Shown: positions 11,081 through 55,182 of the stretch, in pieces
How positions within the stretch are numbered: position 1 is the stretch's first letter
Layout: every line of letters starts with the position of its first letter
From: a virus
DNA length: 64,000 nucleotides
Reading direction: 5' to 3' (one strand)
Virus record (IMG/VR): IMGVR_UViG_3300015050_000902
Coordinates: 2,581 to 66,580 of that record
Program-made: the position numbers and the translations under genes
The notes under the pieces: model-generated
What the model saw: only the letters and a program-made list of their open reading frames with translations
Told to the model about the DNA's origin: nothing
Databases searched by the model: none

Positions 11081-11097
11081 CAAACTACGAGATCAAC

Positions 11098-12829: not shown

Positions 12830-12830
12830 C

Positions 12831-27158: not shown

Positions 27159-27169
27159 GGCATGTGGCC

Positions 27170-37853: not shown

Positions 37854-39140
<1,287 letters not shown>

Positions 39141-39263: not shown

Positions 39264-39967
39264 CAGTTGATCACCGTTCCAAAGCCCCGGATGACAGGCG
39301 GCGGCGGTGCGCCACCAGCGAGCACGTCGACGGAGAACATCCACGGCGTCTCGCTCGGGCTGCCGGTGAGCGTCTGCCCGCTGAGCGCGGTGGGCTGCAC
39401 CTTGTAGCCGCCCACCGTATAGGTTCGGTTGCTACCAGAGACCGGCTCGTTATTGACCGGGCCCATGTCGGTATATCCGGACGGCGACGCCTGCGTGAAC
39501 GAAGCCGCGCGCGTGGTCTGGTGCGTGATGACCAGCACATCGTTCGCGTCCCAGGCGATGCCGCCGACGGACGGCGAAGAGCCGGCACCGATGTTGCCTG
39601 CTTCAAACGGGAGACCAGCGTTGGTGTCCCACGGGTTCGCGGTGTCGAATACCCCTGTCACGGAGAAGAGGATGAGCGTGCGGGTGTTGAGCGAGTTGTC
39701 GGTAAACGAGATGTTCGCAGAGGAGAGCTGCGAAGCAGCGTATGCCCACCATACTTCCTGGGTCGTGACCGCACCGCTGCCGTCGGTCTGGCTCTTCGTG
39801 GAACGCTGCACCCACGTCAGACCGCCGCCAGTGACGGCCGACACCGAGCACGCCGCGCTGCTGCACAGGGCGATCAGCGCCACGACGATACGACCAGCAC
39901 CGGAGTTGGAATAGGCGCCAAACCCGTTGGTCACACTGACCGAGACATTCTCTGCTGCAATCGCCAT
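39263..39967 (-). CDS. Virion surface/fibre-tip protein
   Basis: 234 aa, S/T/G beta-rich, between fibre genes. Confidence 0.65.
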   Translation of the reverse strand: MAIAAENVSVSVTNGFGAYSNSGAGRIVVALIALCSSAACSVSAVTGGGLTWVQRSTKSQTDGSGAVTTQEVWWAYAASQLSSANISFTDNSLNTRTLILFSVTGVFDTANPWDTNAGLPFEAGNIGAGSSPSVGGIAWDANDVLVITHQTTRAASFTQASPSGYTDMGPVNNEPVSGSNRTYTVGGYKVQPTALSGQTLTGSPSETPWMFSVDVLAGGAPPPPVIRGFGTVIN

Positions 39968-40752
39968 TAGAGCCTCGTGACCTTGAGCGCGCAGGTGACC
40001 CGCGTGATCGTGGAGCAGCTGTTGACATTGAACGCGAGGACGTCACCCGCGGCAAGCGAGGTGGTCCAGCCGGTGAGCGTGGTGTCTTCCGACTTCTTCG
40101 CAGCCGAGATCGTTGGCGGCGCGCTCGCGGTGATCTTGTCGCCAGATGCCGGATGCGTCGGCGGATCGAAGTCCGTGTAGGTGCAGCGGAAGATGTCCAC
40201 CACCACGCTGCCGGTCTGATCGGCGAGCAGAGTGTTGGCCGTGATCACGCAGGCGAAGTCGACGCGCAGATAGCCAGCGATGCCGGTACCGATGACCGCA
40301 CCGACGCCGTCGATGACGAACTCCAGGCCGGCAACCTGGGACGGCCCGGTCGCACCGGTGGAGCCCGTTACGCCGGCGGTGCCGGAGGGACCAGTGGGGC
40401 CGGTCGGGCCGCCGCTCGGGCCAGTCACGCCGGAAGGACCCGTCGGGCCAGTGCCAAACGGTCCGGTGTTGCCAGTCGGGCCGGTGGCGCCGAGGGCATC
40501 GAGGCCAGTCGGACCGACGTTGCCCGGAGGACCCGTGTAGCCAGTAAGGCCACGAGGACCCGTGCCGCCGGTCGGACCCGTGGTGCCTGATCCGGTCGCG
40601 CCGGTGGGACCGGTGTTGCCGGTGGGCGCAGGTGTGCCGCTCGGGCCGGTGTTGCCCGTCGGACCCGTGGGGCCGCCAGACGGACCCGTGGGGCCGCCAA
40701 TGACCACGACCGGCATCGCCATGATTGCGGCTGGTTCTACGACCTGGACCAT
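39967..40752 (-). CDS. Collagen-like fibre protein
   Basis: [11 protein letters not shown] repeats plus C-terminal beta domain. Confidence 0.85.
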
Positions 40753-41769: not shown

Positions 41770-42164
41770 TATGCTGCTCCCGGTTGCGGCGCGCTGGGCG
41801 TGGGCTTGCCGACGAGCATGGTGTTGAACAGGTTGAGGAAGGCGGACGCGCGGGCATCCTGGATGTCTTCTTGGTCGCGCATCAGCGCGTGCGCCACCAT
41901 GCCGTAGAGGATCGCCATGCGGAACGGTTCTTCCATCTGCACCTCGGTGCCGTCCTTGCCCTGGAAGCTCTGGACGCCCTTCTTGCCGGGCGCGCATTTG
42001 TTGTAGAGGAACAGGTCGGCGCGCAGCCGGCGCGCTTCGAGCAGCGTCACGTTCATCGCGACCACGAGACTGTCATCATCGTATCGGTACGGCGCGATCG
42101 TGTCCTGCAGGAGGACGCGCCCGTCGTCGATGTAGTCGTTGATGGTGTCGAGCGCTGAGGACAT
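41769..42164 (-). CDS. Head completion/adaptor protein
   Basis: R.LLQD...RY.D..L....N......R.R.DLF. Confidence 0.7.
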   Translation of the reverse strand: MSSALDTINDYIDDGRVLLQDTIAPYRYDDDSLVVAMNVTLLEARRLRADLFLYNKCAPGKKGVQSFQGKDGTEVQMEEPFRMAILYGMVAHALMRDQEDIQDARASAFLNLFNTMLVGKPTPSAPQPGAA

Positions 42165-42181
42165 GGACGGACCCGCCAAAG

Positions 42182-42212
42182 AAAAGCCCCCGCAGCATTA
42201 CCCGCGGGGGCC
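42182..42212 (-). terminator. Rho-independent terminator after major capsid gene
   Basis: GCCCCCGC stem followed by a U-rich tract on the - strand. Confidence 0.75.
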
Positions 42213-42227
42213 TTAATCTTTGGTTTA
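42213..42227. promoter_or_regulatory. CtrA-like box (1 mismatch)
   Basis: ttaatctttggttta upstream of the adaptor genes. Confidence 0.45.
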
Positions 42228-42242
42228 CAGACCGAGCAGCGC

Positions 42243-43253
42243 TTAGCTGTTCGGGGTCACCTGCGCCTGGACCAGCGCCTTGCCGTCGACGACCTGATAG
42301 CCGTAGACCTGAAGGCCGCGGAGGATTTGACCGAAGGTCAGCTCCGACCGCAGGGTCTCCACCTTGCTGATCTGCGAGGCGAAGGTCAGTCCGTGGGCAT
42401 GGCCCGCGAAGATCGGCCACTCGCCGGCGTCGAAGTTGGCGGCGTCGGTGCTGTTGTTCGGCAGCAGGTTGGAGATGTAGATCGTGAACCGATCCACCAT
42501 GCCCAGCCGGCCGTTGCGCAGCATCGAGACGCTGTCACCCGACAGGTATGCCTGACGCAGTTCGGACTGTTTGATCATCCGGCCAGCCCACGACGGCATG
42601 ACGACCCAGCGGCCGACTTCCGGAATGTTCTGTTCGTCGAGCACCTGACCCATGCGCATCAGCACGTCCAGGAGTTCGATGTCGCCGACGCCCGGGTTCT
42701 TGGAGACCACGCTGAGCGGGGTACCCTTGACACCGAGGTTGATGTTGCCCGTGATGGCGCCCGCCGAGATGCCGCGGTTGGCCGCGACCATCTGGTTGAC
42801 GATACCATCGAGCACATCGCTGTCGACCGTGATCTTCAGCTGCTGCGCCGCGTCGTCCGACCACATGGAGAGGACGTTCAGATCGCTCTGAATTTCCATC
42901 ACGTCGTCGAGGATCAGCGAGAAGTACTTGCCGTTGCCGATGTACAGCTCGACGGTGCCGCCGGTCGGGCGGTCGAGGCCGAGCAGGCCGTCGGACTTGT
43001 AGTCGTGGATGGTGATCGTCGGCTTCGTGCGGATTTTGACACGATCGCCCTTGTTCTTGATCTCGCCTTCGTAGTCGGTATTCGAGATCGCGGCGAGCAC
43101 GGTGCTCGCGTAGAACTTCTCGACGAGCTTGCCCGACCAGATTTCCGGGATGAAGCCCGTGGTCTGGAGGGAGTTGCCCGAGCTACCTACCGGGTAGATG
43201 GCTGGCGAAGAGCCCGACGTTGCGCCGGGAAAACCTGCTGAGGGAATGGGCAT
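42243..43253 (-). CDS. Major capsid protein (HK97 fold)
   Basis: FIPEIWSGKL...NTDYEGEI...GD.VKI, GRWVVMP, FGQILRGLQVYG; after scaffold, before terminator. Confidence 0.92.
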   Translation of the reverse strand: MPIPSAGFPGATSGSSPAIYPVGSSGNSLQTTGFIPEIWSGKLVEKFYASTVLAAISNTDYEGEIKNKGDRVKIRTKPTITIHDYKSDGLLGLDRPTGGTVELYIGNGKYFSLILDDVMEIQSDLNVLSMWSDDAAQQLKITVDSDVLDGIVNQMVAANRGISAGAITGNINLGVKGTPLSVVSKNPGVGDIELLDVLMRMGQVLDEQNIPEVGRWVVMPSWAGRMIKQSELRQAYLSGDSVSMLRNGRLGMVDRFTIYISNLLPNNSTDAANFDAGEWPIFAGHAHGLTFASQISKVETLRSELTFGQILRGLQVYGYQVVDGKALVQAQVTPNS

Positions 43254-43292
43254 GGCTGAAAGCCCCAATCTGTGGGGCTCGTAAGCCCCGGG

Positions 43293-44447
43293 TTATCGGA
43301 TACGCCCTTCTCTCTGTGCCGCCTGAAGATCAGCTTCGATTTGTCTGTACTCGGCTTCGCGGCCGGCATAGACGCCTTTGCGGCTGTCATCATAGAACTT
43401 GGAGATTTGGGCGCGGGTGTAGATCGGCTTTTCGCTGGGCACCTGGGTGTCTCCCGATGCCGGCCTAGCCCTGCCGGGGGCTGCGAGGGTCTCCAGGTTC
43501 ACAGCAGCGTGTCGAGGAGCGGGACCGGGGTCCTGCTGTTCGAGCTGTTGCGCCGGAGCTTGCATGCCCGTGGCGTGTGCTTCCGCAATAAAGTCCTTGA
43601 AGAGCGCGATCGTCTGCGGGGCATTTGCGCCGTCGACTGCCGCCTTCAACATGTTCCCTCGTAGCTGACCAGTGTAAACGTTCGGTAAACGCAGCCACGA
43701 CTTGAACTGGACGGAGGTGTTGATCTGCCGCCAGTTGGGGATGTCACGATCGAGAACCTGGAAGAGTTCGCGCTTGCTCGTCGACTGCACGCGCTGCGTC
43801 AATTGCTGGTTCTGCGCCCGCAATTGTTCGAGTTCGGGGGTCACGCTCTCGCGCGCGGCGCGGCGTGCGAGGTCGATCAGCTCATCGCCGTAGGCCTCCC
43901 GGTCGGCTTCGGTGATCAAGTTACCGTGATCACCCCCGCGAGCACGAATTTGTTCTTGCGTCGGCGCCTGCTGGTTCTGCAGCAGGTTCTGGGTGGAGAC
44001 CAGCTCCTGCCCGAGCTGGCGCATCTGTTCCTCCATGCCGGCGCATTCCCGCACCTTGGCCTGGAAGCGTCCCTGCATCGACAGGAAGCGGTGGCGCCAT
44101 TCCTCGGCGGTGACGTTCTGGTCGGCCGCCGACGGCGCGGGGTGCTGTTGGTCGCCCTGCTGCGCGACGAAGTTCTGGGCCTGTGCGGCGCGCGCGGCTT
44201 CGGCCTCGGCAGCCTGGGCATCGAGCTGGGCCTGGGACGGCTGGTTGACCGGCGCGGGCGGGGGCGGCTGCGGCAGGTCCTCCTTCTTCGGCGCGGGCGG
44301 CTGGTTGTCGTCGCGCGGGTAATACTGGCGATGCAGCTCCTCGGCAGCCGACGCGCCGGCGGCGACGTGATCGGGGATGCGCACGTTCGGGTCGATCGAG
44401 GCGGGGGTGGGATTGGTGATCTGCTTGAGACCTTCGTTGGCTGACAT
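43293..44447 (-). CDS. Capsid scaffolding protein
   Basis: Coiled coil, P/Q-rich, ends AQREGRIR, directly upstream of the capsid gene. Confidence 0.82.
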   Translation of the reverse strand: MSANEGLKQITNPTPASIDPNVRIPDHVAAGASAAEELHRQYYPRDDNQPPAPKKEDLPQPPPPAPVNQPSQAQLDAQAAEAEAARAAQAQNFVAQQGDQQHPAPSAADQNVTAEEWRHRFLSMQGRFQAKVRECAGMEEQMRQLGQELVSTQNLLQNQQAPTQEQIRARGGDHGNLITEADREAYGDELIDLARRAARESVTPELEQLRAQNQQLTQRVQSTSKRELFQVLDRDIPNWRQINTSVQFKSWLRLPNVYTGQLRGNMLKAAVDGANAPQTIALFKDFIAEAHATGMQAPAQQLEQQDPGPAPRHAAVNLETLAAPGRARPASGDTQVPSEKPIYTRAQISKFYDDSRKGVYAGREAEYRQIEADLQAAQREGRIR

Positions 44448-44701
44448 CAGGGCTGTCCTTGTGCGGTGGGGGGTGCGGAATGGCCGGCGGGATGGCGAAG
44501 CAACTTGAGCAGGTGCAGGAATGCCTGCGCCCGACCCTGTGCGTTGAGGATTTCGGATTGATCGGCGCTCGTTACCGCCACGGTAACTTCGGTCGCGTAG
44601 GCGTCGAACACCTGACAGAACTCGTCATACTCTTTCGGAGCGGCGATCTGCAGGCGGTGCGCGTATTGGGCTAGGATGTTGCTCGGGCTAAAGGACTTCA
44701 A
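44447..44701 (-). CDS. Small head-module protein
   Basis: TTG start overlapping the previous stop; AQGRAQA motif. Confidence 0.6.
   Translation of the reverse strand: MKSFSPSNILAQYAHRLQIAAPKEYDEFCQVFDAYATEVTVAVTSADQSEILNAQGRAQAFLHLLKLLRHPAGHSAPPTAQGQP
44572..44586. repeat. TTACCGYNRCGGTAA palindrome (in CDS)
   Basis: gttaccgccacggtaac. Confidence 0.9.
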
Positions 44702-44928
44702 GCGATACCGTTTCCGCTCCAATGGCCGGAACCGAGCCCATCAGGGGCGGGAGCAGGTCGCTGGGGCTGTGCCATGGGGGTGGCTTTGCCGTAGGACTGA
44801 AAACTCGCGGGGCCACCACCGGTGGCGGCTGCGGGCAGGGTGCGCTGGGACGAGCCTTTGTTCGGCGCGTTGTCCAGGGTGCCCTTACGGGAATGCGGGG
44901 CGAGGGGGGTCATGTCTTTCTTGAACAT
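44698..44928 (-). CDS. Small G/P-rich protein
   Basis: Coupled; shares a YGK motif with the neighbour. Confidence 0.6.
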   Translation of the reverse strand: MFKKDMTPLAPHSRKGTLDNAPNKGSSQRTLPAAATGGGPASFQSYGKATPMAQPQRPAPAPDGLGSGHWSGNGIA

Positions 44929-45140
44929 CAGATGCCTCCGAGGCGACCGCTGCTGTCACCGGGACCGAACGGAGAGATCGGCGGGGGCGTGTCGAACCCG
45001 CGTTCCTTCTTGCCATAGTCCCGAGTGTTCTTGAGGTGAGGCTTGGGAGCCGCACCAGATGGCCCGACGCGCGACGGTCCGCCCGAGCTGGGGACAGCCG
45101 CCGGTTTACCCGGGCCGCGTGAGCTGATACCGCGTGCCAT
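44928..45140 (-). CDS. Small basic G/P-rich protein
   Basis: TAATG/TGATG coupling. Confidence 0.6.
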   Translation of the reverse strand: MARGISSRGPGKPAAVPSSGGPSRVGPSGAAPKPHLKNTRDYGKKERGFDTPPPISPFGPGDSSGRLGGI

Positions 45141-45361
45141 TATCGGGCGCTGGTAATGCCGGCCTGGGCGGGCATGGCGCCTGAATAGCCGAACATCTTG
45201 CCGGAGCCACCCTTGGCGAACTTGTCGCCCGGTGCGGAGCCGGAGCCCTTGTCGGTCGTGCCCGCGGCCTGCGGGCCAGCGGCCTGCTCACCGAACATGT
45301 GGGTCTTGCCACCTTTGGCGAACTCGACGTTGCTCTCGGTCTTTTTGGTGAACGCGGCCAT
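45140..45361 (-). CDS. Small protein with two FAKGG...MFG repeats
   Basis: AAGGAG RBS; internal duplication. Confidence 0.7.
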   Translation of the reverse strand: MAAFTKKTESNVEFAKGGKTHMFGEQAAGPQAAGTTDKGSGSAPGDKFAKGGSGKMFGYSGAMPAQAGITSAR

Positions 45362-45411
45362 TGGAAAGTCTCCTTGGGAACCTTGGTCGCGTTCACCTAA
45401 GCGCGTGGGGA

Positions 45412-45426
45412 TTAAAAACCCCTTAA
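45412..45426. promoter_or_regulatory. CtrA box (perfect TTAA-N7-TTAA)
   Basis: ttaaaaaccccttaa, about 50 bp upstream of the scaffold/capsid operon. Confidence 0.7.
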
Positions 45427-45986
45427 CGCTTGACCATCAGCAGGCGCTCGGCCTTGTGCGTCGTGAACTCCTCGATCTGCACGCCCTGCGGGAAGTGGCG
45501 ATACATGTGGATCAGATCGTTGTTCGGCACCTTGTAGGGGCAGACGTCCTCGACCGCGTAGACGCCGTCGCGCTTCAGGTAGGGGAACAGATCGCACAGC
45601 AGGTTGAGCTGCGGCAGCGGATCGTGCACGGCGTCGTCAACGATCAGGTCGAAGTCGCCGCCGAACCGCTCGATCACCTCGTGCAGCTGTCCGCTGTTGT
45701 AGGCGTCGCACTGCGCCGTCCGGATGCTCTGCTGGTCGTTGAAGATGAAGCGGTTGTCGTAGTCGATGCCGAAGATCGCCGCGTTCGGGAAATAGTCCCG
45801 CCATGCGAACAGGCTGGCGCCGACGACGTTGTTGGGGATGTCGCGGAAGCCGCAGATGCCGATCTCCAGCACACGCTTCACGTCGAAGCGCTTCTGCTCC
45901 AGATATTTTTCGTAGGCGGCGGTGTAGCCCCAGATGCCTTTGTCGGTACCGTATTTGGTGAATAGGCTTTCGAGATAGGTGTCCAT
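45423..45986 (-). CDS. Class I SAM-dependent methyltransferase (sugar O-methyltransferase-like)
   Basis: KYGTDK, VLEIGI, GASL..WRDYFPNA.IFGID, FDLIVDD..H, GVYAVED. Confidence 0.85.
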   Translation of the reverse strand: MDTYLESLFTKYGTDKGIWGYTAAYEKYLEQKRFDVKRVLEIGICGFRDIPNNVVGASLFAWRDYFPNAAIFGIDYDNRFIFNDQQSIRTAQCDAYNSGQLHEVIERFGGDFDLIVDDAVHDPLPQLNLLCDLFPYLKRDGVYAVEDVCPYKVPNNDLIHMYRHFPQGVQIEEFTTHKAERLLMVKR

Positions 45987-46645
45987 CAGCGTAGCTCCAG
46001 GTTGTCAAACATTGAAACGTTGTGATCGGCCTTGTACCAGTGGAAGGGCAGCTTGTGCTGCGCCTCGACACGGGCCCAGGTGTTCACTTCCCACTCGACG
46101 TTCTTCGTCGACGAGATATGCTTGCGCGCCGCGACACGGCACTCGAAGTCGAGCTGGTCAACCAGCTTGCGCGGAACGGCGAGGACGGAGCCACAAAATC
46201 TCCAGCACGGATAGGCACTCTCAATAGCGACAGGACGCTCTTGCCAGCAGCCGGGCGCGTAGATCGCCTTGTCATCGAGCTTCTCCATGAACTCGTAGAT
46301 GGCTTGGTTGTTGACCCCGGGCAGGCGGAAGATGCCGTAGTCGACCCACACCAGCACGTCGGCGTCGGGGTCTTCGTCCGCAGCCTGCACCAGCCACGAT
46401 GTCTTCTGGTGGTTGACGCAGTGATACACCAGCGAGTTCTTGCTGGGGTTGTCGTGCTCCGACGACTTCGGCGTGAACGGAAGCGTGTTGATGTACTTCG
46501 TCAGCCACAGGTCCTTCGGGTGCATGTAGAAGGCCTTCTTCTGAACGGGGACCCCGCTCAGCTTCTCCCCCAGCTCGCCGTACTCGACGGCGCTGCGGGG
46601 GTGTCCGGGGATGGGTACGTAGCCGGTGACGAGTTTAACCTTCAT
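45986..46645 (-). CDS. HtrL/WlaTC-like glycosyltransferase
   Basis: LVTGY, K...L..A...DP, WVDYGIF, WRFCGSV, EVNTWA, WYKADHN. Confidence 0.7.
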   Translation of the reverse strand: MKVKLVTGYVPIPGHPRSAVEYGELGEKLSGVPVQKKAFYMHPKDLWLTKYINTLPFTPKSSEHDNPSKNSLVYHCVNHQKTSWLVQAADEDPDADVLVWVDYGIFRLPGVNNQAIYEFMEKLDDKAIYAPGCWQERPVAIESAYPCWRFCGSVLAVPRKLVDQLDFECRVAARKHISSTKNVEWEVNTWARVEAQHKLPFHWYKADHNVSMFDNLELR

Positions 46646-48662
46646 GGAATTTCCAGATCATGCGTGAGACTTCTTCGATTGACACGGTCGCCACGTGGGC
46701 TTCCGCATCGCGGACACCGAACGACAAGATCAGATCGTCGCCGTTGGGATGCTTGGCGAGGCCAGCGCAGAACTCGATCTGGCGCTCATAGAACACGAAC
46801 GGCAGGCTGAGCCGGAACAGACGGCCCTCGCCATCGAACCACGCGAAGCGATGCCAGTACGTGCGCTTGTTGTTGGTGGGGTCGTTGGCTGCTTCGTGCA
46901 CCACGGCGAGGTAGCCCGCCTTGAACGGGATCAACTGCGACGAGCCGCTGATCTGGTCAGCTGCCACCTTGATGTCGAACTTCTCGACGGGGGTCTGACG
47001 CGGCAGCGCGCGATCGAGCCCGGCGAACGGAGTGATGATGGTGTCCAGCCGATAGATGAAGCGCTGGTCGTGGAAGTGCATCCAGTTCTTCTCGTTGACC
47101 GAACCCATGTCCACAACCCGCCAGCGGTCAACGCTCATGGTGGGGGTGTCGAGATTGTAGCTCACCGAGCCGATGACCTGCTGGCAGGTCCCCTCGTAGC
47201 TCAGCTCGCGGACGCAGGCGTTGAAGTGAAGCTGGCCGTTGTAGTGCCAGAGCCGGACGTCCTCCAGCCCGATGACCATGTCCCAGGCGGGCTCGGGCCG
47301 GCTCCAGAGCAGCTCGCTCGACTTGTAGACATTCAGGTTGTCGTCGAGTTTTACAATGAAGTTGCGGGTGACGATCGGTGCATCGCCGCACTGCTGCTCG
47401 CCGATCATATAGCGGCCGTGCTCGTCGATCGTGTAGTTGACACAGCGGATGTTGCAGTAGACGTGGTCGGCGAACTGCTCGACCGCTGGGTTCATCGCCG
47501 TGTAGCCTTCCGGCGCGACGAAGTCGAGGCGCTTGCCCTTGAACGACGGGCAATAATGGCTCAGCGGCAGAGTGTACCAGAAGAGGTTCGACCGCGCGCT
47601 CGCGCGGACTTCCGCGTTGCACGTTGGATCGAGCGCGAGATCATCCGTAACCTGGAACGCGCAATTGCGCTCTTTAGGCTCATAGTATCCCGTGACCGAA
47701 TACTCGTAGCGCAGGCCGTGGCTATAAACAAAATCGTTGACAAAGAGGAGGTCATTGGGTCTCGGGATGTTCATGCCGTGCTTGGCATAGAGGTTGGCAA
47801 TGCTGTTCATGCCCTTCTCGCGATAATGCTTCGCGAGGTCGTAGAGTGGCTCCGCCCGGGTTGGTCGGAAGTTGAAGGCATCGTTCAGGCCGGAGACGTA
47901 GGCGCTGTCGAGCCCGCGGTCCTTCCAACAGCCGGCGATCCCCATCATGGCGCTGTGGGTCTCTTCATCCCAGCCGCCGAGGTCGACACGGCGCTGGTAG
48001 GCGGCGATGGCCTCGATCGGCCGACCCCAGTCGCGATAGCTGTTGCCGAGGTAATACCAGTAGCGCCCGTTGTTGGGTTCGCTCCTAAGGCCTTCTTCGA
48101 GCAGTGTCACGTCGCGCTCGAATTTATCGGCACGGTTGGCGCCGTCGGCGTGGTCGATGAAGTGTGCGCCCTTGATCATGCCCTGCGAGGGAATGTCGAT
48201 GTATTCGTGGGTGACGCCGACGTAGGGCGGCTTGCCCCAGGTCAGGTTGACGACGCGGCGGTTGGCGTAGCTCACCACGCCACCCTTCTGGATCATGTCG
48301 TAGGAGGCGTCGGCGCCGGAGAGCCGATGGAAGACCTTGGGGTCCTCGACAACAAGCTCCATGTCAGCGTCCATCATCAGCGCAAACTGGCACCACTGCA
48401 GCTGGCCCTTGCCGTTGCGGTTCTGCGCCAGCTCGAACGCATCGTTGCGCGCCTGGGAGAAATTCTCGAACGTGCCGACGACGATCTCGTAGGGCACGCC
48501 GTCGTCCTGGCACAGGCGTTTGATCTTGTTGATGGTGTCGTCGGTCGATCCGGTATCGAGGATCACCACTGACTTGACGTAGGGCAGGACAGACAGAAGG
48601 CAGCGGTCAATGCGCGCGGCCTCGTTCTTGACAATCATGTTCAAGCAGAGCGATGGCTTCAT
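46635..48662 (-). CDS. Glycosyltransferase family 2 with TPR and C-terminal beta-propeller (GH130-like) domain
   Basis: LNMIVKNE, DTGSTD, F...RN, DAD, GVTHE; TPR RYWYYLGNSY and RAEPLY; propeller NP, EDVR, EKNW, IEFCAGL. Confidence 0.9.
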   Translation of the reverse strand: MKPSLCLNMIVKNEAARIDRCLLSVLPYVKSVVILDTGSTDDTINKIKRLCQDDGVPYEIVVGTFENFSQARNDAFELAQNRNGKGQLQWCQFALMMDADMELVVEDPKVFHRLSGADASYDMIQKGGVVSYANRRVVNLTWGKPPYVGVTHEYIDIPSQGMIKGAHFIDHADGANRADKFERDVTLLEEGLRSEPNNGRYWYYLGNSYRDWGRPIEAIAAYQRRVDLGGWDEETHSAMMGIAGCWKDRGLDSAYVSGLNDAFNFRPTRAEPLYDLAKHYREKGMNSIANLYAKHGMNIPRPNDLLFVNDFVYSHGLRYEYSVTGYYEPKERNCAFQVTDDLALDPTCNAEVRASARSNLFWYTLPLSHYCPSFKGKRLDFVAPEGYTAMNPAVEQFADHVYCNIRCVNYTIDEHGRYMIGEQQCGDAPIVTRNFIVKLDDNLNVYKSSELLWSRPEPAWDMVIGLEDVRLWHYNGQLHFNACVRELSYEGTCQQVIGSVSYNLDTPTMSVDRWRVVDMGSVNEKNWMHFHDQRFIYRLDTIITPFAGLDRALPRQTPVEKFDIKVAADQISGSSQLIPFKAGYLAVVHEAANDPTNNKRTYWHRFAWFDGEGRLFRLSLPFVFYERQIEFCAGLAKHPNGDDLILSFGVRDAEAHVATVSIEEVSRMIWKFHEG

Positions 48663-48703
48663 GGCAGGCGTCCTGAGTTGGGGTTCAGGGTTATGACGCT
48701 AGA

Positions 48704-49243
48704 TCAGCCGTTCGAGATACGCAAGCAGTTTGCGCCGGTGCAGCCGGGCAGTCGCCAGACGGCGCCGTTGATCTGCGGGTTCTCCGTCGGCGGGGACCAC
48801 ACGTTGTCCTCGACCGGTCCAGGTGCACCCACGATACCGCGTTGTCCAGTCGTGCCAGAGGGTCCGGTGGCGCCGGTCGCGGACTGCGCGCCGGTGGGGC
48901 CATCACGACCTGTTGATCCGCCTGTCGGTCCGGTGTCGCCGGTGCGGCCCGTAGCGCCGCGGCCGGTGTTGCCGGTCGGACCGGTGCGGCCGCGATAGCC
49001 GGTGGGTCCGGTGACGCCGGGTCCCATCGCGCCGCGGTTGCCCGTTGCGCCGGTGGAGCCCGTCGGTCCGGTCGACGCCGGGTTGCTGCCGGTGGGTCCG
49101 GTTGCACCAGTCGATCCCTGATAGCCCGGGATGTTCTTCGTGTTGACGAGATCGACCGCGAGCTTGAGGACAGCCGGAATGCGGTTGTCGTCATAGGTCT
49201 CCGGCAGATCGGGATCAGGGATGATCGGAGGAACGTTGGTCAT
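48704..49243 (-). CDS. Collagen-like G-X-T fibre protein (paralog 2)
   Basis: YD.N....VLK..VD..N, GXT repeats, PPT.NP..NG.VW tail. Confidence 0.85.
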
Positions 49244-49254
49244 GTGCGTTCCCC

Positions 49255-49755
49255 TTAACCAGCCGAGACGGTGAGCACGCCGCTGTTATTCCAAACCTGC
49301 CCGTTGACGTGCGGGTCGGAGGTCGGCGGGATGATGATCTTGGCGATGGTGCCGGTCGGTCCGGTGTTGCCGGTCGCACCCGTGGCTCCGCGCGCGCCGG
49401 TCGGGCCTGTACGTCCGAGGCCCGTGGGACCGGTCGCACCCGTGGCTCCAGGGCTCGGGCCGGTTGCGCCGAACGGACCTGCGGGACCCGTCGGGCCCGG
49501 TCCAGTCGGGCCGGTGTTGCCAGTCGCACCCTGCGCGCCATCCGGGCCAACCACATAGCCCGTCGGGCCGGTTGCTCCAGTGACGCCGGTGGGTCCGGTG
49601 TTGCCTCGCGCGCCGGTCGATGAGCCGGTCGGGCCGGTTACGCCGGCAGCGCCCGTGGGGCCGCCGACCGAACCTGAATTGATGGCGTCGACCACTTCCT
49701 TGAGGACGCGGCCGAGAGTGTTGCGATCGTAATTGCGCGAGCTGAGAATGGGCAT
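49255..49755 (-). CDS. Collagen-like G-X-T fibre protein (paralog 1)
   Basis: YD.N....VLK.VVD..N, GXT repeats, PPTSDP..NGQVW tail. Confidence 0.85.
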
Positions 49756-49836
49756 TTGGTCGTCCCCTGCCAGTAACTGGACCTCGGCAAAACGCCGAAC
49801 ATGTTCCGGGTCTATCGTTCAATCCCTACCAACCCC

Positions 49837-50871
49837 TTAACCCCAGGGGTTGAAGCCGGACGGAGCGGCGTTGACGAACGGCGCCGCGGTGTCGATCGTG
49901 ACGTTGCCGGTGTTCTGGACGAAGGCCAGCGGGAAGATCGCGGTCGCACCGCCGACGGACGACGTGATCGCGATGCCGCCGGTGCCGGTGGCCGGGTTGG
50001 CCGTGCCGCTGGCGTTCCAGTTGCCTGCATCGTACCTGAACCACATCAGGCGCGCGTCGAGGTCGATCGCGACACCGACCACCTTGCCTGAGGGCACGCT
50101 ACCCATGTTGCCGCCGCCGTTGGCGATGCCGCCCCAGTTGAGGACGGTCATCGAGTTCGCCTGCGAATTGTCGTTCAGGGTGTAGCTGGAGTTACCGACG
50201 CCGCAGGCGCCGTTGTTGTTGAACAGGACGGTCGGAAACTCGAAATAGTACTTGCCCGTGGTGTGGGACAGCGTGCCGCGGCAGCCGTAGTTGCCCGCGC
50301 CGCCACCGTTGAAGGTGAGGTCGGAGTTCGTCAGCGTCGAGCCCGTCGTCTTGTCCGCAGAGTTCCAGGTCGATGGCGGTGCCGCGTAGGTGAACAGGCC
50401 CGTGCCCGTGCCGGAGCCGGCCGGGGTCGTGACGACGACGTCGGTCGCGCCCGCAGCGTGGGCGGGGGACGTCGCAGTGATGGTGGTGTCGTTCACCACG
50501 GTGATGCCGGTCGCGGCGCTGCCGCCGATGGTCACTGCCGTGGCGCCGGTGAAGTTCTCGCCCGTGATGGTGACGGACGTGCCGCCGGCAGTCGTGCCGC
50601 CGGTGGGGTCGATGCTGAGCACGACGGGCGGCAGCGCGCCGCCACCGTAGCCGTCAATGATGATCGTCGGCAGCCCAGCGATCCCGGTACCCGCGAAGCA
50701 GACCGTGGCGAACGTCCCGGTCGGGCCGCTGGCGCCGGTCGGGCCAGTGATCTGGGCGAACGTGGGAAAGCGGCCGTAGTCGATGCCGGTCGGGCCGGTC
50801 GACAGGATGTTGACGTTCTTGAACAGGCCGGTCGGGCCCGTGGGTCCGTCGAGGACAAATACCGACTTCAT
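49837..50871 (-). CDS. Virion decoration protein: short GPT repeats, IPT/TIG domain, SPRY/concanavalin-like domain
   Basis: P.V.SI.P..G...GGT.VTITG.NF (IPT); TWN.ADK, GKYYFE, VGVAIDLD...WF (SPRY-like). Confidence 0.8.
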   Translation of the reverse strand: MKSVFVLDGPTGPTGLFKNVNILSTGPTGIDYGRFPTFAQITGPTGASGPTGTFATVCFAGTGIAGLPTIIIDGYGGGALPPVVLSIDPTGGTTAGGTSVTITGENFTGATAVTIGGSAATGITVVNDTTITATSPAHAAGATDVVVTTPAGSGTGTGLFTYAAPPSTWNSADKTTGSTLTNSDLTFNGGGAGNYGCRGTLSHTTGKYYFEFPTVLFNNNGACGVGNSSYTLNDNSQANSMTVLNWGGIANGGGNMGSVPSGKVVGVAIDLDARLMWFRYDAGNWNASGTANPATGTGGIAITSSVGGATAIFPLAFVQNTGNVTIDTAAPFVNAAPSGFNPWG

Positions 50872-53189
50872 CCGACGCCTCCGCTAACCGGCTTCGCGCC
50901 GGACCCAGGCTGGACGCCGGTGAGGTGGGTCTGCGGCCCCATGCTATTCGACAGCTGGCTGGGCTGCGAGCCCTGGGCCTGCTTGGCGCGTTCCTCGGTG
51001 CCATCCTGCGGGTGTTGTCCACCCAGGTCCATGTCCGGGTTGTTGGTGGTCGACGTGCCGCCGGGGTTCTGCTGCTGCATGCCCGGGCGTTCCGGATAGC
51101 CGTCCGGCATCTGCGCGCGAGCAGCGAGCGCACCTTCGGTGAGCTGGCTGGTGATCTTCTTGACACCGCTCTCGACGCCCTGCGCCACCGCCTTCTGGAC
51201 GGCTTGGTCGATCGCACCCTGGCCGGAGGCGGCCGCCTTCTTGTCGGCTTCGACCATGCGGTCAATCATATCCTCGGGCGGGACGATCTCCTCGCCGGGC
51301 ATGCCGATCGTGGTCGAGACCGAGCGCAGGATCACGGAGCGCCCCTTGATGCCCATGATCTTCTGGTCGGTCGGGTTGTTGGTCGCGGTCAGGAACTCGA
51401 TCTGGCGCTGGCGGAGCGTCTCGCGCTGGATCGCGACGTTGACACCCTGCACGGTCAGGCGCTCGTTGCCGGTCAGCAGTCCGCTCTCATCGGTGAGGAG
51501 GAGCAGGTCCTGCAGCTGCAGCATCGAGCCTTCGATGATGTCGCGGTCAATGTTCGCCGACACCGTCTGCAAAATCTTCGACGCGTTGCCCATCAGCATC
51601 GCGAGGCCGGACGCAGTTCGACCCGCGCCGCCGCCACCGGAGCCACCGACATACTTCGGGATGGCTGAGACGTCGTCGGCAATCGAGACAAACTCCTGAT
51701 AGACCGCGATCAGCTGCTGCGCGTTCGAGGCCGGCATGAAGAAGCTGATGGGCTGCTTGCCCGAGCTGGTCATCGGATCGTTCCGGACGTGCCAACGCTT
51801 CCATGGGTACATGTCCTCGCCGTTTTCCTCCGGCGCCAGCATGTCGTCATTGACGACGACCTGGGGGCCCGAAGCGATGGCAATGTTGTTGATCAGCGCG
51901 CGCAGCGTTGCGTTCGCGCTCTCCTGGAGATCGGTGAGCAGATCGGTGAGGCCGTTGCCTACTGGTGTCCCCGGCACCTTCTCGAACGAAGTAATAAAAT
52001 AAGGGTGGCGCTGTCGCGGTGAAGGCGACATGTGACACTTGATGACGTGGCTTCCGACGACCCATACCTGCACGTGGTAATCGCGCAGCTCGTCGGGAAC
52101 AGGCATTCCATAATCCTGCAGAATGCGGCCCTGAACATTGCCGTTGAACTCCATCATCGAGATCATGCCGGAGCGGTTCCAGGCCGGGTTCTCCCGGTTC
52201 TCCAGCACGCTGCGCTCGGCGTCGGTGGTGTCCCAGTTGTCGTAGAGACCGCCGCGGCCATACTCATCGAGCACAGCCCTGATCTCGGCGGTGTTGTAGC
52301 CGGGCAGGTCGAGCAGATCGTTCAGCTCGGCGCGAGTGACGCGCAGCTTCTCGATCACATTTGCGTTTTCGATGTCCGCGACGCCGGGCGTGAACCACAG
52401 GTCGAACGGACTGACCCGGTTCCAGGTCAGCGTCGGGGTCTGCTTGATCGACGGCTGTCCGCCTCCGGGCGGCCACTGCACCGACGGGATCACCTTGACG
52501 ACGGGACCCTTGATGCAGGCGAACGGGAAGATGGTAAGGTCCACGAGGAACTCGGCGAGCGCGTGATAGTAGCCGCCCTTGTTCAGCATGTCCTGGATTT
52601 TGTCGCCGCTCGTGCGGGCCTGATCGGTGGCCTTGCGCTTGGCCGCGTCGGTGGCCTGCTCCATGAGCATGCGCTTGCGCTCGGACAGATCGCCGGGCGA
52701 CGGCGGCTGACCCAGCTTCTGGGCGACCTGCATGGCCTCCGCTTTGACCAGCGCCTCGATCTTGGCGATGATCTCGGGCGGCACCTCGGGGTTCTTCTCG
52801 GGCTGCAACGACCACGGGATGTCCTGCCCCAGGTAGATGTCGCGGAGCAGCGACGTCGCGGCGCGGCACTTCTGCGCGATCAGCCGGGCGAAGACGGTCG
52901 AGCCGCCCTGCTTGGTGATGTCAGCGAGCTTGGTCGGATCATACTGGCCGTTGAATGAGCGCAACGCGGCGAGCATGCGGTTGCTCCAGCCGGCCTGCGT
53001 GTTGCGGTGGTTCCGGAAAATCTCGAACTGGCCTTTGACGTAGCCGGCGAGCTGCGGGTAGGCGGGCTGCGCGGACATCGTCGCCGCCTGCGCGGCCGCG
53101 GCTTTCTGCGACGCAGCTTCTGCCAGCTGCTTCTCCAGTTCGGCTGGACCGGTGAACTGGATGACGCCGTTTTGTCCGAGGTCTGCCAT
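50868..53189 (-). CDS. Portal protein
   Basis: 773 aa after terminase; RVSPFD, ASGPQV, P.K.W, GAGRTASGLAMLM. Confidence 0.9.
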   Translation of the reverse strand: MADLGQNGVIQFTGPAELEKQLAEAASQKAAAAQAATMSAQPAYPQLAGYVKGQFEIFRNHRNTQAGWSNRMLAALRSFNGQYDPTKLADITKQGGSTVFARLIAQKCRAATSLLRDIYLGQDIPWSLQPEKNPEVPPEIIAKIEALVKAEAMQVAQKLGQPPSPGDLSERKRMLMEQATDAAKRKATDQARTSGDKIQDMLNKGGYYHALAEFLVDLTIFPFACIKGPVVKVIPSVQWPPGGGQPSIKQTPTLTWNRVSPFDLWFTPGVADIENANVIEKLRVTRAELNDLLDLPGYNTAEIRAVLDEYGRGGLYDNWDTTDAERSVLENRENPAWNRSGMISMMEFNGNVQGRILQDYGMPVPDELRDYHVQVWVVGSHVIKCHMSPSPRQRHPYFITSFEKVPGTPVGNGLTDLLTDLQESANATLRALINNIAIASGPQVVVNDDMLAPEENGEDMYPWKRWHVRNDPMTSSGKQPISFFMPASNAQQLIAVYQEFVSIADDVSAIPKYVGGSGGGGAGRTASGLAMLMGNASKILQTVSANIDRDIIEGSMLQLQDLLLLTDESGLLTGNERLTVQGVNVAIQRETLRQRQIEFLTATNNPTDQKIMGIKGRSVILRSVSTTIGMPGEEIVPPEDMIDRMVEADKKAAASGQGAIDQAVQKAVAQGVESGVKKITSQLTEGALAARAQMPDGYPERPGMQQQNPGGTSTTNNPDMDLGGQHPQDGTEERAKQAQGSQPSQLSNSMGPQTHLTGVQPGSGAKPVSGGVG

Positions 53190-53238
53190 TGGATATTCTA
53201 CTCGCGCGGGTTCCCATAACGCCCTCGCATGGCTGGCC

Positions 53239-53253
53239 CTAAAAACTCCTTAA
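53239..53253. promoter_or_regulatory. CtrA-like box (1 mismatch) in the portal/holin divergent region
   Basis: ctaaaaactccttaa plus an extra GTTAAC half-site near 53264. Confidence 0.55.
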
Positions 53254-53313
53254 CGACGGAAACGTTAACCTCTTGCTGGCATCACTGGAGGCCTCAAACG
53301 GGAGTGCGGGTCA

Positions 53314-53601
53314 GTGGAACAGAACGTCAGCAGCACCATCAACCAGTGGGTCGGAAACATCTTTTCGGCCGGCGCAATCGTGTCCACCGCGATGGGGTGG
53401 CTGCCGGCTATCGCCGCGGCGATGGGCGGTCTGTGGTACCTGATCCAGATTTACGAGAGTGCAACCGTACAACGTTGGGTGGCCACTCGGCGCATCCGTA
53501 AAATTGCGCGGATGAAGGCTCGGGTGATGATGCTAGAAGCACGTCACCGGGCGCCTCTGCGGGGGCTCGATCCTCTCGACGACGGGCCGGATGCGCCTTA
53601 G
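53314..53601 (+). CDS. Holin-like small membrane protein, antisense to the late arm
   Basis: GGAG RBS; hydrophobic helices then Arg/Lys-rich tail; fills the gap between terminase and portal. Confidence 0.6.
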   Translation: MEQNVSSTINQWVGNIFSAGAIVSTAMGWLPAIAAAMGGLWYLIQIYESATVQRWVATRRIRKIARMKARVMMLEARHRAPLRGLDPLDDGPDAP

Positions 53602-55052
53602 GTCCATCCATTCGCTGAAACGGCACCACGTTTCTTCGTGCGCGGGCGGAGCCGGCGCGTGATCTCAGGCACAATGCCACCATGCACGACAAGAGCAACA
53701 TACTGAAGATCGTCGGCGACATGTGAGAACCCTTCCTTGTCGTTCTTCTCGGGCACGGTCTTGAGCGCCCCCGACTTGAATTTCGTGAAGCGATAGCCGC
53801 CCGACATGGCGCGGCAGAGGTGCGGTGCGCCGGTGCGTGAGATGATCAGGCTCGGCCCGCCGTTGGTCTGACGCCCCAGCAGATGCTCGACGGCGCGCAG
53901 CCGCGGCTCGATGTCGTTGGTCGGCGCCGGGAACGCCGGCAAGCCCATGCGCTGGAGCGCGTCGATGCAGCTCTCCTCGCCGATGGAGCCCTTCGCCACG
54001 CCGCTCGGATCGCCGACGCAGCAGACCTTGTAGCCGATGAACCGGTTCGAGTAGAGCACCGGCCGCAGGTTCTGCTCGACGTGCTTCTCCAGGCCGACGT
54101 TGGTGCCCGGGACTTCCTGATGCACGATCAGGCGCCCCATGTGATCCATCTGACAGATCAGCGACCACGGGTTGCGGCCGAAGTCCTGTCCGATGAGGAG
54201 GGGGTATCCGGGAATAAGCAGAGTGTCCTGGACAATGTGGAAGTCGGACTTGAATGTGTTTTTGAAAACTGCCGCGCCAGACGGATCATCGCCATACTCA
54301 GCCTTGACATATCGGCGGACCCAGTCGCTGTCCTCACCGTACATCTCAACGAAGCGCTCATAATACTTTCGGCCCTGCGCAAGGCGTGCCGGGTGATCAA
54401 TGGGCAGCTTGATGGTGTCTTCATTCTGCACCAGCCAGTTCAGGTTCTCGGCGTCGAAGGCAAGCCCGGAGGGCTGCTTAAAAATCTGCACGTCCATCGG
54501 AGGGTTCTCCATGTACGTGTGCCACGGCGTCATCTCGGTCGGGAAGTTCGTGTCGGCGATGAAGCCGTGCCATGACGGCGTACCCTGAGCGCCGGAGGGA
54601 TAGCGGCCCAAGCGACCAGAGATAGGAGCAACAACGTCCAGGTCCATCTCAATACATTCCGAGAGCCACGCTCCAGTGAGCTGCATGGACAGCAGCCGGG
54701 CTTGGTCCTCAGAATTCTCCAGAGGGATAAACACCCACTCGGATCGCACATCGTCGAACTCCACGTGGAACGTGTTCTCGGACACCTTCCAATACCCGAG
54801 GCTGCCGAGCCAGCTTTGGCAGTCCTTGAGCACGGTGTCCTTCAATTGCTTCAGGGTCTGGCGCACGACGGCGTGCCGCGTGTAGCGATAGCCGTCGGCA
54901 GCGCGCGACTGCCCGAGCGATCGGCGCAGCAGCTCGATGACGGCAGCGGTGGTCTTGCCGGAGCCGACAGGCCCGGCGATCAGGCGGCCGAACGCCTCGC
55001 TCTTCATGAAGCGAGCGCAGGTCGGCGGCGCTGCGTAATTGAGGTCAGGCAT
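53598..55052 (-). CDS. terL: Terminase large subunit
   Basis: GPVGSGKT, LTGAWLSE, GRYPS, DTN, GQDFG, SHVADDLQY. Confidence 0.93.
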   Translation of the reverse strand: MPDLNYAAPPTCARFMKSEAFGRLIAGPVGSGKTTAAVIELLRRSLGQSRAADGYRYTRHAVVRQTLKQLKDTVLKDCQSWLGSLGYWKVSENTFHVEFDDVRSEWVFIPLENSEDQARLLSMQLTGAWLSECIEMDLDVVAPISGRLGRYPSGAQGTPSWHGFIADTNFPTEMTPWHTYMENPPMDVQIFKQPSGLAFDAENLNWLVQNEDTIKLPIDHPARLAQGRKYYERFVEMYGEDSDWVRRYVKAEYGDDPSGAAVFKNTFKSDFHIVQDTLLIPGYPLLIGQDFGRNPWSLICQMDHMGRLIVHQEVPGTNVGLEKHVEQNLRPVLYSNRFIGYKVCCVGDPSGVAKGSIGEESCIDALQRMGLPAFPAPTNDIEPRLRAVEHLLGRQTNGGPSLIISRTGAPHLCRAMSGGYRFTKFKSGALKTVPEKNDKEGFSHVADDLQYVALVVHGGIVPEITRRLRPRTKKRGAVSANGWT

Positions 55053-55182
55053 CTTCACCCTCGTCGTTGTCGGGCACGCGGAGCATGGGCTTCTCGCACG
55101 CCTCACACCAAGGGATGGAGCGGAGCATTGACGGATGCTCCTTCACCTCACCGCAGTCGTTGCAGATATACAGGTCAAGCAT
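55045..55182 (-). CDS. 45-aa zinc-ribbon protein (below ORF-track cutoff)
   Basis: YICNDCGE...WCEACEKPM; overlaps both neighbours. Confidence 0.6.
   Translation of the reverse strand: MLDLYICNDCGEVKEHPSMLRSIPWCEACEKPMLRVPDNDEGEDA

Follow-up and report, generated by a model that had tools for sequence, protein, structure and literature searches.

Phage-encoded glycosylation of virions has so far been shown in mycobacteriophages, and the passage of PMC12619734 that cites Freeman et al. 2023 places the glycans of these actinobacteriophages on the C-termini of capsid and tail-tube proteins. For collagen-like repeats, a passage of PMC7157674 describes how SgtA of Clostridioides difficile, whose gene adjoins bclA3, puts beta-O-linked N-acetylglucosamine on the threonines of GPT repeats. 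A passage of PMC9614988 presents A064R of PBCV-1 as two glycosyltransferases plus a sugar O-methyltransferase for capsid glycans, and part of PMC6316719 describes gp12 of SPP1, encoded in the head module, as a short collagen-like trimer that binds the capsid surface. Here we analyzed a 64,000-nucleotide stretch of viral DNA (hereafter the window), which comprises bases 2581-66580 of the 66,580-bp viral record IMGVR_UViG_3300015050_000902; the record has direct terminal repeats and was judged complete. Between its portal and putative scaffold genes, two glycosyltransferase-like enzymes and a methyltransferase are encoded beside two collagen-like proteins. We propose that this cassette is a phage-encoded cytoplasmic protein O-glycosylation system inserted in the head-assembly operon, and that its enzymes glycosylate virion proteins, with the collagens as main acceptors; we put the probability of this reading at roughly 0.55. 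In other words, the phage probably sugar-coats its own particle. A literature search, which covered few subscription journals and no supplements, turned up nothing on collagen-like virion fibres that are glycosylated by phage enzymes, nor on a GT2-TPR-GH130 enzyme.

Layout of the head-module cassette

The phage is uncultured and short-tailed, with a genome of about 66 kb, a GC content of about 63% and a late arm on the minus strand. Among cultured phages, those nearest to it infect Rhizobium: RHph_TM27A and its kind, four in number and nearly identical to one another (portal 56% and capsid protein 67.5% identity). The cassette runs in the order portal, 344-aa protein, collagens A and B, 675-aa enzyme, 219-aa protein, methyltransferase, small open reading frames (ORFs), scaffold and capsid, as follows.

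50868..53189, minus strand: portal protein, 56% identity to the annotated RHph_TM27A portal, PHROG 332/1216; upstream boundary of the cassette
49837..50871, minus strand: three-part virion-type protein of 344 aa, TIG/IPT plus SPRY-like
49255..49755, minus strand: collagen-like protein A, 166 aa, Pfam Collagen
48704..49243, minus strand: collagen-like protein B, 179 aa, Pfam Collagen; paralogue of A
46635..48662, minus strand: 675-aa enzyme, GT2 plus TPR plus propeller
47553..48662, minus strand: residues 1 to about 370 of the 675-aa enzyme, GT2 (GT-A) plus TPR/helical part, SunS/ThuS-like
46635..47552, minus strand: residues about 371-675 of the same enzyme, GH130/GT108-like beta-propeller
45986..46645, minus strand: 219-aa protein of GT-A fold (A064R-D1/HtrL_YibB-like) in an AlphaFold2 (AF2) model
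45423..45986, minus strand: 187-aa class I S-adenosylmethionine methyltransferase of MycE/TylE type
44447-45361: four small conserved ORFs between the methyltransferase and the putative scaffold
43293..44447, minus strand: putative scaffold, so named because it precedes the gene of the major capsid protein; PHROG 13678, of unknown function, with a syntenic gene in RHph_TM27A
42243..43268, minus strand: major capsid protein, 67.5% identity to that of RHph_TM27A, PHROG 267

The six genes that the original prediction had placed, co-oriented and closely packed, from portal to scaffold are indeed all on the minus strand at these positions. The spacing between cassette genes is -11 to +81 nt: the portal stop and the start of the 344-aa gene overlap by 4 nt, and overlaps of 11 and 1 nt join the three enzyme genes. 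RHph_TM27A has just three small genes between the portal and the gene in scaffold position, so that the window phage carries about 5.5 kb extra there. A megablast search of the 5.4-kb region against 50,697 phage records gave no match, and a promoter and terminator scan of 41900-55300 gave no usable signal (promoter-like sites 4 versus 2.1 expected, terminator-like sites 6 versus 9.6 expected). No epimerase or dehydratase for nucleoside diphosphate (NDP) sugars and no nucleotidyltransferase was found in the complete 66,580-bp genome, in agreement with the earlier statement that no sugar-synthesis genes were seen. Since it has no sugar-nucleotide synthesis genes of its own, the window phage must draw on the sugar nucleotides of its host, as the original prediction had supposed.

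The three enzymes of the cassette

The 675-aa enzyme had been described from its sequence as a joined GT2, TPR and propeller protein, and this description was borne out. An AF2 model built from 22 homologues reached a predicted local distance difference test (pLDDT) score of 91.7. The GT2 domain passes its Pfam cut-off (PF00535, residues 9-103, 34.6 bits versus 23.3), the fold of the N-terminal half is SunS/ThuS-like, and the propeller is real in the model and GH130-like. The TPR matches in Pfam are below their own cut-offs. In Foldseek the GT2-TPR half matched the SunS/ThuS structures 7msn, 7msk and 7msp with E of about 1e-13 over 290-385 columns (template-modelling score, TM, by target 0.54-0.64), and a phmmer search gave E 1.7e-8 for the N-terminal half against SunS 7msp. 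The match to the flagellin glycosyltransferase GmaR was weak (E 0.0023). The enzyme scored 38.9 bits against the NCBIfam SunS equivalog TIGR04195, for which the cut-off is 350, and it is therefore no equivalog member of the SunS family. Residues D36, D41 and D98-A99-D100, which we take to be the nucleotide-binding and DXD residues of a GT-A enzyme, are invariant in 22/22 homologues. We propose that the GT2-TPR half is a priming protein glycosyltransferase.

The C-terminal half (residues about 371-675) forms a five-bladed beta-propeller that Foldseek matched to GH130 beta-mannoside phosphorylases with E 1.8e-9 to 1e-7 and TM by target 0.5-0.63. The mannoside synthase Uhgb_MS and the GDP-mannose-dependent mannosyltransferase MPT-2 of Leishmania are also among the fold matches. 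At the level of sequence, residues 355-675 gave no match to PF04041 (GH130) up to E 10, and a profile of 24 propeller sequences searched against the PDB sequences found no GH130 chain, only one row at chance level. The propeller shows 29% identity (E 2e-31) to a stand-alone protein named 'MGP' of cyanophage S-SCSM2R. This protein scores 21.4 bits against PF04041, below the cut-off of 26, and its sole matching segment is GLEDCR, which aligns to the invariant G465-x-E467-D468-x-R470 of the 675-aa enzyme. Presumably this G-x-E-D-x-R motif carries the catalytic aspartate of GH130 enzymes, in which case D468 would have that role. R600, Y602, H604 and R605 are invariant in the propeller as well. The propeller is fused to a glycosyltransferase in 22/22 aligned homologues, and because of this constant fusion we favor a biosynthetic role for it. 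On the evidence of the modelled fold, we propose that it may be a module that adds (or trims) beta-mannosyl residues.

In S-SCSM2R (L149:2983-5812) the 'MGP' gene lies between a baseplate gene before it and a gene for a 621-aa TPR-DUF6445 protein after it. The pairing of propeller and TPR thus recurs, unfused, in the structural region of a cyanomyovirus.

Among proteins predicted for giant viruses and for uncultured tailed phages, the GT2-TPR-propeller architecture is common. The clusters of the ESM Atlas that have it count 50-175 members, mostly Nucleocytoviricota, and in forms of about 900 aa HtrL_YibB is found on 15% of members. The top BFVD matches of the 675-aa enzyme come from an uncultured Caudovirales phage and several pithovirus-like genomes (E 8e-39 to 1e-25). 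These close structural relatives in pithovirus-like and other giant viruses mean that the enzyme links phage and giant-virus glycobiology.

The 219-aa protein has no match of its own in Pfam (up to E 10), NCBIfam or PHROG. Its AF2 model (pLDDT 90.8) shows a GT-A fold, and the top Foldseek match is PBCV-1 A64R (A064R domain 1), with E 1.4e-5. The VIA-align comparison with A064R domain 1 gave Z 12.6 and a root-mean-square deviation of 3.4 over 164 residues, at 12-14% sequence identity; the runners-up were LARGE1 (11.4), XXT1 (10.4) and GT6 enzymes (about 9.9). D102, in W-V-D-Y-G, is the only invariant aspartate at the expected strand end of the DXD motif. The earlier label of an HtrL-like glycosyltransferase holds as far as the GT-A fold is concerned, and its HtrL part is transitive only. 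The window protein itself does not match HtrL_YibB PF09612, which is weakly matched by 4/18 clade homologues (best E 0.0027) and passed by the fused relative L054 (27% identity; 38.7 bits versus a cut-off of 24.1). From its modelled fold, we propose that the 219-aa protein may be a second, elongating glycosyltransferase.

The third enzyme, of 187 aa, had been called a class I methyltransferase for sugars, which agrees with its matches in a phmmer search of the PDB to TylE 8ia9 (E 4.3e-17) and MycE 3ssm (E 3.9e-16) over residues 7-150. These sugar O-methyltransferases are its sole PDB relatives. Both act on macrolide glycosides, in which they methylate a hydroxyl group of the sugar. The LEIG, DDxxH and ED motifs are in register with theirs, and we take DDxxH/ED to be the metal ligands. 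The 187-aa protein lacks the N-terminal auxiliary domain of about 160 aa of MycE/TylE and aligns to PDB chain residues 161-302 and 187-326 only. It belongs to PHROG 21658 (methyltransferase); its Pfam matches are below the cut-offs, and NCBIfam gave nothing. Its sequence relatives lead us to propose a sugar O-methyltransferase that would cap the glycan.

Gene fusions join these domains to one another in other genomes. Locus L053 (9734-12460) encodes a 909-aa protein that consists of the 219-aa domain and a whole GT2-TPR-propeller, and L054 (9791-11461) a 557-aa protein with the 219-aa domain and the propeller alone. These two contigs have a GC content of 0.37-0.40 and may be of giant-virus type. 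A scan with the 909-aa protein returned only itself and the clade of the window phage. The fusion partner of the 219-aa domain in P0121/P0122 (494-497 aa) is DUF4422, likewise a family of glycosyltransferase type. None of the three window enzymes has a hydrophobic segment (maximal Kyte-Doolittle mean over 19 residues at most 1.33), and for this reason we consider a protein target rather than a lipid-linked one. Taken together, the three enzymes very probably form a coherent soluble set for building and tailoring glycans.

Collagen-like proteins and the post-portal protein

All four collagen-like proteins of the phage score above the Pfam Collagen cut-off (PF01391, 27.2 bits), including the two further Gly-x-Thr collagens that had been noticed in the tail module, and triplet counts agree with this. 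The two tail-module genes are as follows.

39967..40752, minus strand: tail-module collagen-like protein, 261 aa, Pfam Collagen 33 bits; C-terminal match to PHROG 35197/10330 'virion structural protein'
37854..39137, minus strand: tail fibre, 427 aa, collagen stalk with a Gp77-like fibre-tail adaptor N-terminus

Collagen A (36 bits) has 33 interrupted G-x-y triplets, 20 of them with threonine at y, between a short helix-like N-terminal segment and a C-terminal tip of about 30 aa. Collagen B (39 bits) has 31 triplets with threonine at y in 16. In these two proteins threonine therefore occupies y in 52-61% of triplets, and proline or alanine stands at x. The 261-aa protein has 36 triplets (threonine at y in 19), and the 427-aa tail fibre (48 bits) has 57 (threonine at y in 33); the Gp77 match of the latter, at 25.2 bits, is below its cut-off of 27. 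Overall, each of the four has 31-57 triplets, in runs of 3-11 with short interruptions. Collagens A and B match no Pfam family besides Collagen, and the BclA-specific N-terminal targeting and C-terminal globular domains were not matched. Homologues of collagen A in relatives show 42-78% identity and lie at the same position.

The motif G-x-T-[GA] occurs 20-40 times in each of the four collagens, 8 times in the 344-aa protein (2.6 expected) and not at all in the major capsid protein. The enrichment in the collagens is partly trivial, as collagens are G-x-y by definition.

The 344-aa protein directly after the portal had been labelled IPT/SPRY. Its IPT part stands (Pfam TIG/IPT, residues 82-162, E 6e-15). 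For the SPRY part, residues 165-344 gave no Pfam match up to E 10 (SPRY PF00622 included), and the label is backed indirectly, by structural comparison: the C-terminal 180 residues are SPRY-like in the ESM Atlas (features 0.97) and give a predicted-structure TM of 0.88 by query against viral clusters with SPRY on 17-96% of members. A conserved module occupies residues 1-79; it repeats the motif (T/A)GPTG(x)F and shows 42-51% identity to small ORFs or N-termini directly after the portal in relatives. In many of these the GPTG module is a stand-alone ORF of 83-92 aa at that place (e.g. L012:4309-4587, L016:5521-5787). The SPRY-like part sits in the tail module in L010, L018, L020 and L025, and this relocation suggests domain shuffling between head-anchored and tail-anchored fibres.

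Conservation across an uncultured clade

A large protein collection contains 363 relatives of the 219-aa protein at E <=0.001; among the 120 listed, all show 66-99% identity, and many are on contigs of 62-69 kb. For comparison of gene order we used 52 viral loci found via the 219-aa protein and the best 80 of 236 found via the portal. Dereplication at 97% nucleotide identity of the GT2-TPR gene, with a portal alignment past residue 700 and 80% coverage of the 675-aa protein as filter, gave 52 types; L034 and L043/L044 fell out at this step.

The recurrent order in relatives is portal, variable protein, collagens, GT2-TPR gene, 219-aa gene, methyltransferase, small ORFs, scaffold and capsid. 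One to three collagen genes lie directly upstream of the GT2-TPR gene in 45/52 types: two in 33, three in 10 and one in 2, with none in the other 7. When L034 and L043/L044 are counted, the types with head-module collagens are nearer to 45/54. Among the portal-anchored loci that reach the scaffold or capsid gene (n=35), all 35 have the GT2-TPR gene, 33 the collagens and 31 the 219-aa gene. The 219-aa gene was found in 46/50 types with enough flank, and a homologue of the window methyltransferase in 27/41. Portal identity within the cassette-bearing clade drops to 57-60%; the arrangement is conserved over this range and is more than chance. Outside the clade, the outgroup RHph_TM27A gave no GT2-TPR match and no collagen above the cut-off.

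A tblastn search with the 219-aa protein against the 50,697 phage records gave no match. Its profile, searched against the genomes of 185,579 species, found three contigs of metagenome-assembled genomes only, one of which (L056) looks frameshifted. The 219-aa family is essentially viral.

Ten types carry three tandem paralogous short collagen genes (loci L031-L033, L035-L037, L040, L092, L100, L106 and L121), which, judged from the sequences, would fit heterotrimeric fibres. Additional enzymes were found at the cassette site in relatives, as in the loci below.

L036:4949-5761, 10672-11688, 12296-12865, 13529-14353 and 14295-15584: sulfotransferase, NDP-sugar 4,6-dehydratase/epimerase (E 2.5e-45), Methyltransf_24 enzyme, PF13640-type 2-oxoglutarate (2OG)-Fe(II) oxygenase and NDP-hexose C-methyltransferase (E 3.8e-55)
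L037:10648-11358 and 11633-12889: DUF4422 protein and C-methyltransferase

The window phage has none of these extra tailoring enzymes. Variable tailoring genes round a constant GT2-TPR core are what would be expected, from gene content, of a surface-glycan locus. PF13640 includes prolyl 4-hydroxylases, and the 2OG oxygenase of L036 might hydroxylate the adjacent collagens.

In some loci that have no head-module collagens (L034:7102-8004; L131:16186-17082), a conserved protein of about 300 aa with the motif SFEFLIWL and no Pfam match is encoded beside the GT2-TPR gene.

Proposed mechanism and alternative explanations

We propose the following pathway. In late expression, the SunS/GmaR-like GT2-TPR module would set a first sugar, taken from a host UDP-sugar, on threonine (or serine) of the Gly-x-Thr repeats, with the TPR domain holding the protein substrate. 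The acceptors would be collagens A and B, encoded just upstream, with the two collagens of the tail module and the GPTG-motif protein after the portal as probable further ones. The fused GH130/GT108-like propeller would then add beta-mannose from GDP-mannose or mannose-1-phosphate, the A064R-D1/HtrL-like GT-A protein would add a further sugar, and the MycE/TylE-type enzyme would O-methylate the terminal one. The product would be short methyl-capped O-glycans, made of host sugars, on trimeric collagen whiskers of the virion. The identities of the sugars and the order of the second and third steps are guesses. The original prediction is borne out in part: its exosporium-like glycan coat and its suggested roles in collagen stabilisation, adhesion or shielding would be further conjecture, and so would a location of the collagens on the head.

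Several lines of evidence bear on a protein target and on the collagens in particular. The GT2-TPR half resembles enzymes that glycosylate peptides or proteins directly, namely SunS, ThuS and, weakly, GmaR. Co-occurrence of glycosyltransferase and collagen genes, which the original prediction had named as a check among relatives, was found in 45/52 types, and collagens and enzymes, present together in the clade, are absent together from the cultured outgroup RHph_TM27A; the other seven types have the enzymes without head-module collagens. In addition, the cultured jumbo phage Tunturi_5 of Tunturiibacter (L150), an independent case, has a GT2-TPR gene whose product shows 39% identity in the N-terminal half; a tail fibre gene with a collagen stretch lies 3.7 kb away from it. 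SgtA, which acts on GPT repeats and is encoded beside bclA3, and A064R are precedents.

L150 5998-7101 and 7388-12978: Tunturi_5 GT2-TPR gene and neighbours, with four paralogous proteins of about 283 aa and a tail fibre with a collagen stretch (46 triplets; 25 G-x-T-[GA])

Several observations weigh against this reading. The synteny is inherited within one clade, so that the types counted cannot be taken as separate events; the outgroup amounts in effect to a single lineage, and no cultured member carries the cassette. The 219-aa gene is missing in 4/50 types and no homologue of the window methyltransferase was detectable in 14/41, which means that the pathway is not fixed. Seven of the 52 types, as well as L034 and L043/L044, keep the GT2-TPR and 219-aa genes with no collagen gene between portal and enzyme. 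The enzymes are thus not strictly dependent on those two genes, and for the same reason we only infer that the collagens are acceptors. In L053 and L054, the 10 kb that flank the fused gene on either side contain no collagen-like ORF. SunS-type enzymes act on non-collagen peptides too, and yolJ of SPbeta is among the matches. Neither Pfam nor the PDB gave a GH130 sequence match for the propeller, whose activity could be that of a phosphorylase or hydrolase instead of a transferase.

The loci without head-module collagens bring up the possibility that the cassette does glycosylate the virion, with its main acceptors elsewhere than in the collagen repeats (the GPTG protein, fibre tips or another exposed protein), and that the collagens are mere neighbours. 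At the place of the collagens such loci have a small ORF with short G-x-T motifs (90 aa in L034, 120 aa in L051), the GPTG module after the portal is conserved, and the mycobacteriophage glycans are on capsid and tail-tube C-termini in the work cited in the passage of PMC12619734. However, the G-x-T-[GA] motif is mostly in the four collagens (20-40 each, whereas the post-portal protein has 8 and the capsid protein none), and all five records checked that lack head-module collagens encode collagens elsewhere (5/5). We regard this explanation as unlikely as a whole. The small G-x-T ORFs and the conserved GPTG module do imply that the acceptor set may exceed the collagens.

Slightly less probable, in our view, is that the enzymes modify host molecules (O-antigen, extracellular polysaccharide, capsule or flagellin) for superinfection exclusion or receptor masking. 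Polysaccharide pathways often include GT2 enzymes, mannose enzymes of GH130-like type and sugar O-methyltransferases, and the peripheral enzymes of such pathways may be without membrane segments; a flagellin glycosyltransferase, GmaR, is also among the GT2-TPR relatives, at the weak E of 0.0023. Yet the enzyme genes overlap one another within a late head operon, between portal and scaffold, the GT2-TPR half finds its best matches, in sequence and in fold, among peptide glycosyltransferases, and the cassette accompanies collagen genes in 45/52 types. No tyrosine integrase was found in the complete genome, which makes lysogenic conversion unlikely, and lysogenic seroconversion was rejected on the same ground.

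We give still less credit to the notion that there is no single pathway, with the propeller a catabolic phosphorylase or hydrolase (acting, e.g., on host mannans) and the methyltransferase acting on a non-sugar substrate. Most of the GH130 matches in the PDB are, by their titles, phosphorylases or hydrolases, the methyltransferase does not reach the Pfam cut-offs, and a passage of PMC12801897 annotates the cyanophage 'MGP' homologue as a mannan-degradation enzyme. Nevertheless, the propeller is fused to a glycosyltransferase in 22/22 homologues and to the 219-aa glycosyltransferase domain in L053 and L054, its PDB matches of the same fold include a mannoside synthase and GDP-mannose-dependent transferases, and the PDB relatives of the methyltransferase are all sugar O-methyltransferases.

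Hypermodification of phage DNA, which phage glycosyltransferases often perform according to work cited in the passage of PMC12619734 and to which an Nmad5 protein encoded at 157-879 might point, is highly improbable and was rejected, as the genome yielded no thymidylate-synthase-like hydroxymethylase and no TET/JBP match (the latter in a search made without a positive control), the enzymes are in the head operon and outside the replication module, and a TPR domain, a SunS-like fold and a macrolide-sugar-type O-methyltransferase are unlike known DNA glycosylation systems.

A glycocin-type peptide pathway was also rejected: no precursor-like gene is specific to the cassette, and the ORFs at 44447-45361 have positional counterparts in RHph_TM27A, which has no cassette.

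Other features of the genome

The late arm also encodes internal virion proteins and the packaging enzyme, and one gene of the early arm is listed with them here.

53598-55106, minus strand: terminase large subunit, late arm
21822-27218, minus strand: 1798-aa virion protein, lysozyme/endolysin-like at residues about 490-646; its match to DarB-like antirestriction proteins is weak
157-879, plus strand: protein with an Nmad5 'nucleotide modification associated' domain (E 1.1e-12), early arm

The Nmad5 protein is a hint of DNA or nucleotide modification apart from the cassette.

Implications

If protein O-glycosylation by this cassette is true, then sugar-coated collagen fibres would be conserved in a large and widespread clade of uncultured phages of Gram-negative hosts. 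A more detailed picture is possible but doubtful, namely a clade of uncultured, probably alphaproteobacterial podophages that bears collagen whiskers with O-linked, beta-mannosylated and methyl-capped glycans, in which two or three tandem chains maybe form heterotrimers and whose enzyme line is shared with eukaryotic giant viruses. The propeller would then stand as the first known case, in a bacterial virus, of a GH130-fold domain that elongates a protein-linked glycan, and the variable tailoring genes (sulfotransferase, C-methyltransferase, dehydratase and 2OG oxygenase) would mark a fast-evolving code of virion glycans. Glycans of this kind could have an influence on adsorption and particle stability, on how hosts or grazers recognise the phage and on the immunological behaviour of phage preparations. 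As a compact natural fusion of a putative protein-priming glycosyltransferase with a GH130-fold module, the 675-aa enzyme is attractive for enzymology and glyco-engineering. With two collagen substrates and three enzymes, all of them small and soluble, the cassette lends itself to direct testing.

Comparison with known systems

The phage cassette is a member of neither the SgtA-BclA3 nor the A064R family, and it shares features with both. By gene arrangement, it is like SgtA-BclA3 and the BclA of Bacillus in that the gene of a soluble glycosyltransferase lies beside a collagen-like gene with Gly-Pro-Thr repeats. Unlike SgtA, the phage enzyme has a fused GH130-like propeller and two partner enzymes. 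At 166-179 aa the phage collagens are short, and Pfam matches nothing in them beyond the repeats; thus, they are analogues of BclA and do not belong to its family.

The glycocin S-glycosyltransferases SunS and ThuS (7msn, 7msp, 7msk) share with the phage enzyme a GT-A domain and a TPR-like helical part, and they glycosylate peptides directly in the cytoplasm. However, SunS modifies a cysteine of a bacteriocin precursor and has no propeller, and no gene for such a peptide is evident in the phage. GH130 enzymes and the GT108 enzymes of Leishmania (9erg, 5b0p, 6q4z) have the same five-bladed propeller, with G-x-E-D-x-R aligned via the 'MGP' homologue, whereas the phage propeller has no Pfam or PDB sequence match to them and is fused to a glycosyltransferase.

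Among virion proteins, SPP1 gp12 is likened to collagens A and B by its description as a collagen-like protein of the head module; it differs in its length of 64 aa, and no glycosylation of it is reported in the part of PMC6316719 cited above. The mycobacteriophage system has in common with our proposal that phage-encoded glycosyltransferases modify virion proteins, but it has no collagen acceptors and no GT2-TPR-GH130 enzyme as far as the passage of PMC12619734 goes.

PBCV-1 A064R consists of two rhamnosyltransferase domains and a rhamnose 2-O-methyltransferase domain that act on capsid N-glycans. Like the phage set as we propose it, A064R unites glycosyltransferase and sugar O-methyltransferase activities in soluble, viral form and completes the glycans of a virion protein. 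It belongs to a eukaryotic giant virus, its glycans are N-linked and its identity to the 219-aa protein is 12-14%, whereas the phage methyltransferase is related to MycE/TylE. On the other hand, no structure matched the 219-aa protein better than A064R domain 1, and the gene order of glycosyltransferase and then methyltransferase in the phage mirrors the order of the domains in A064R.

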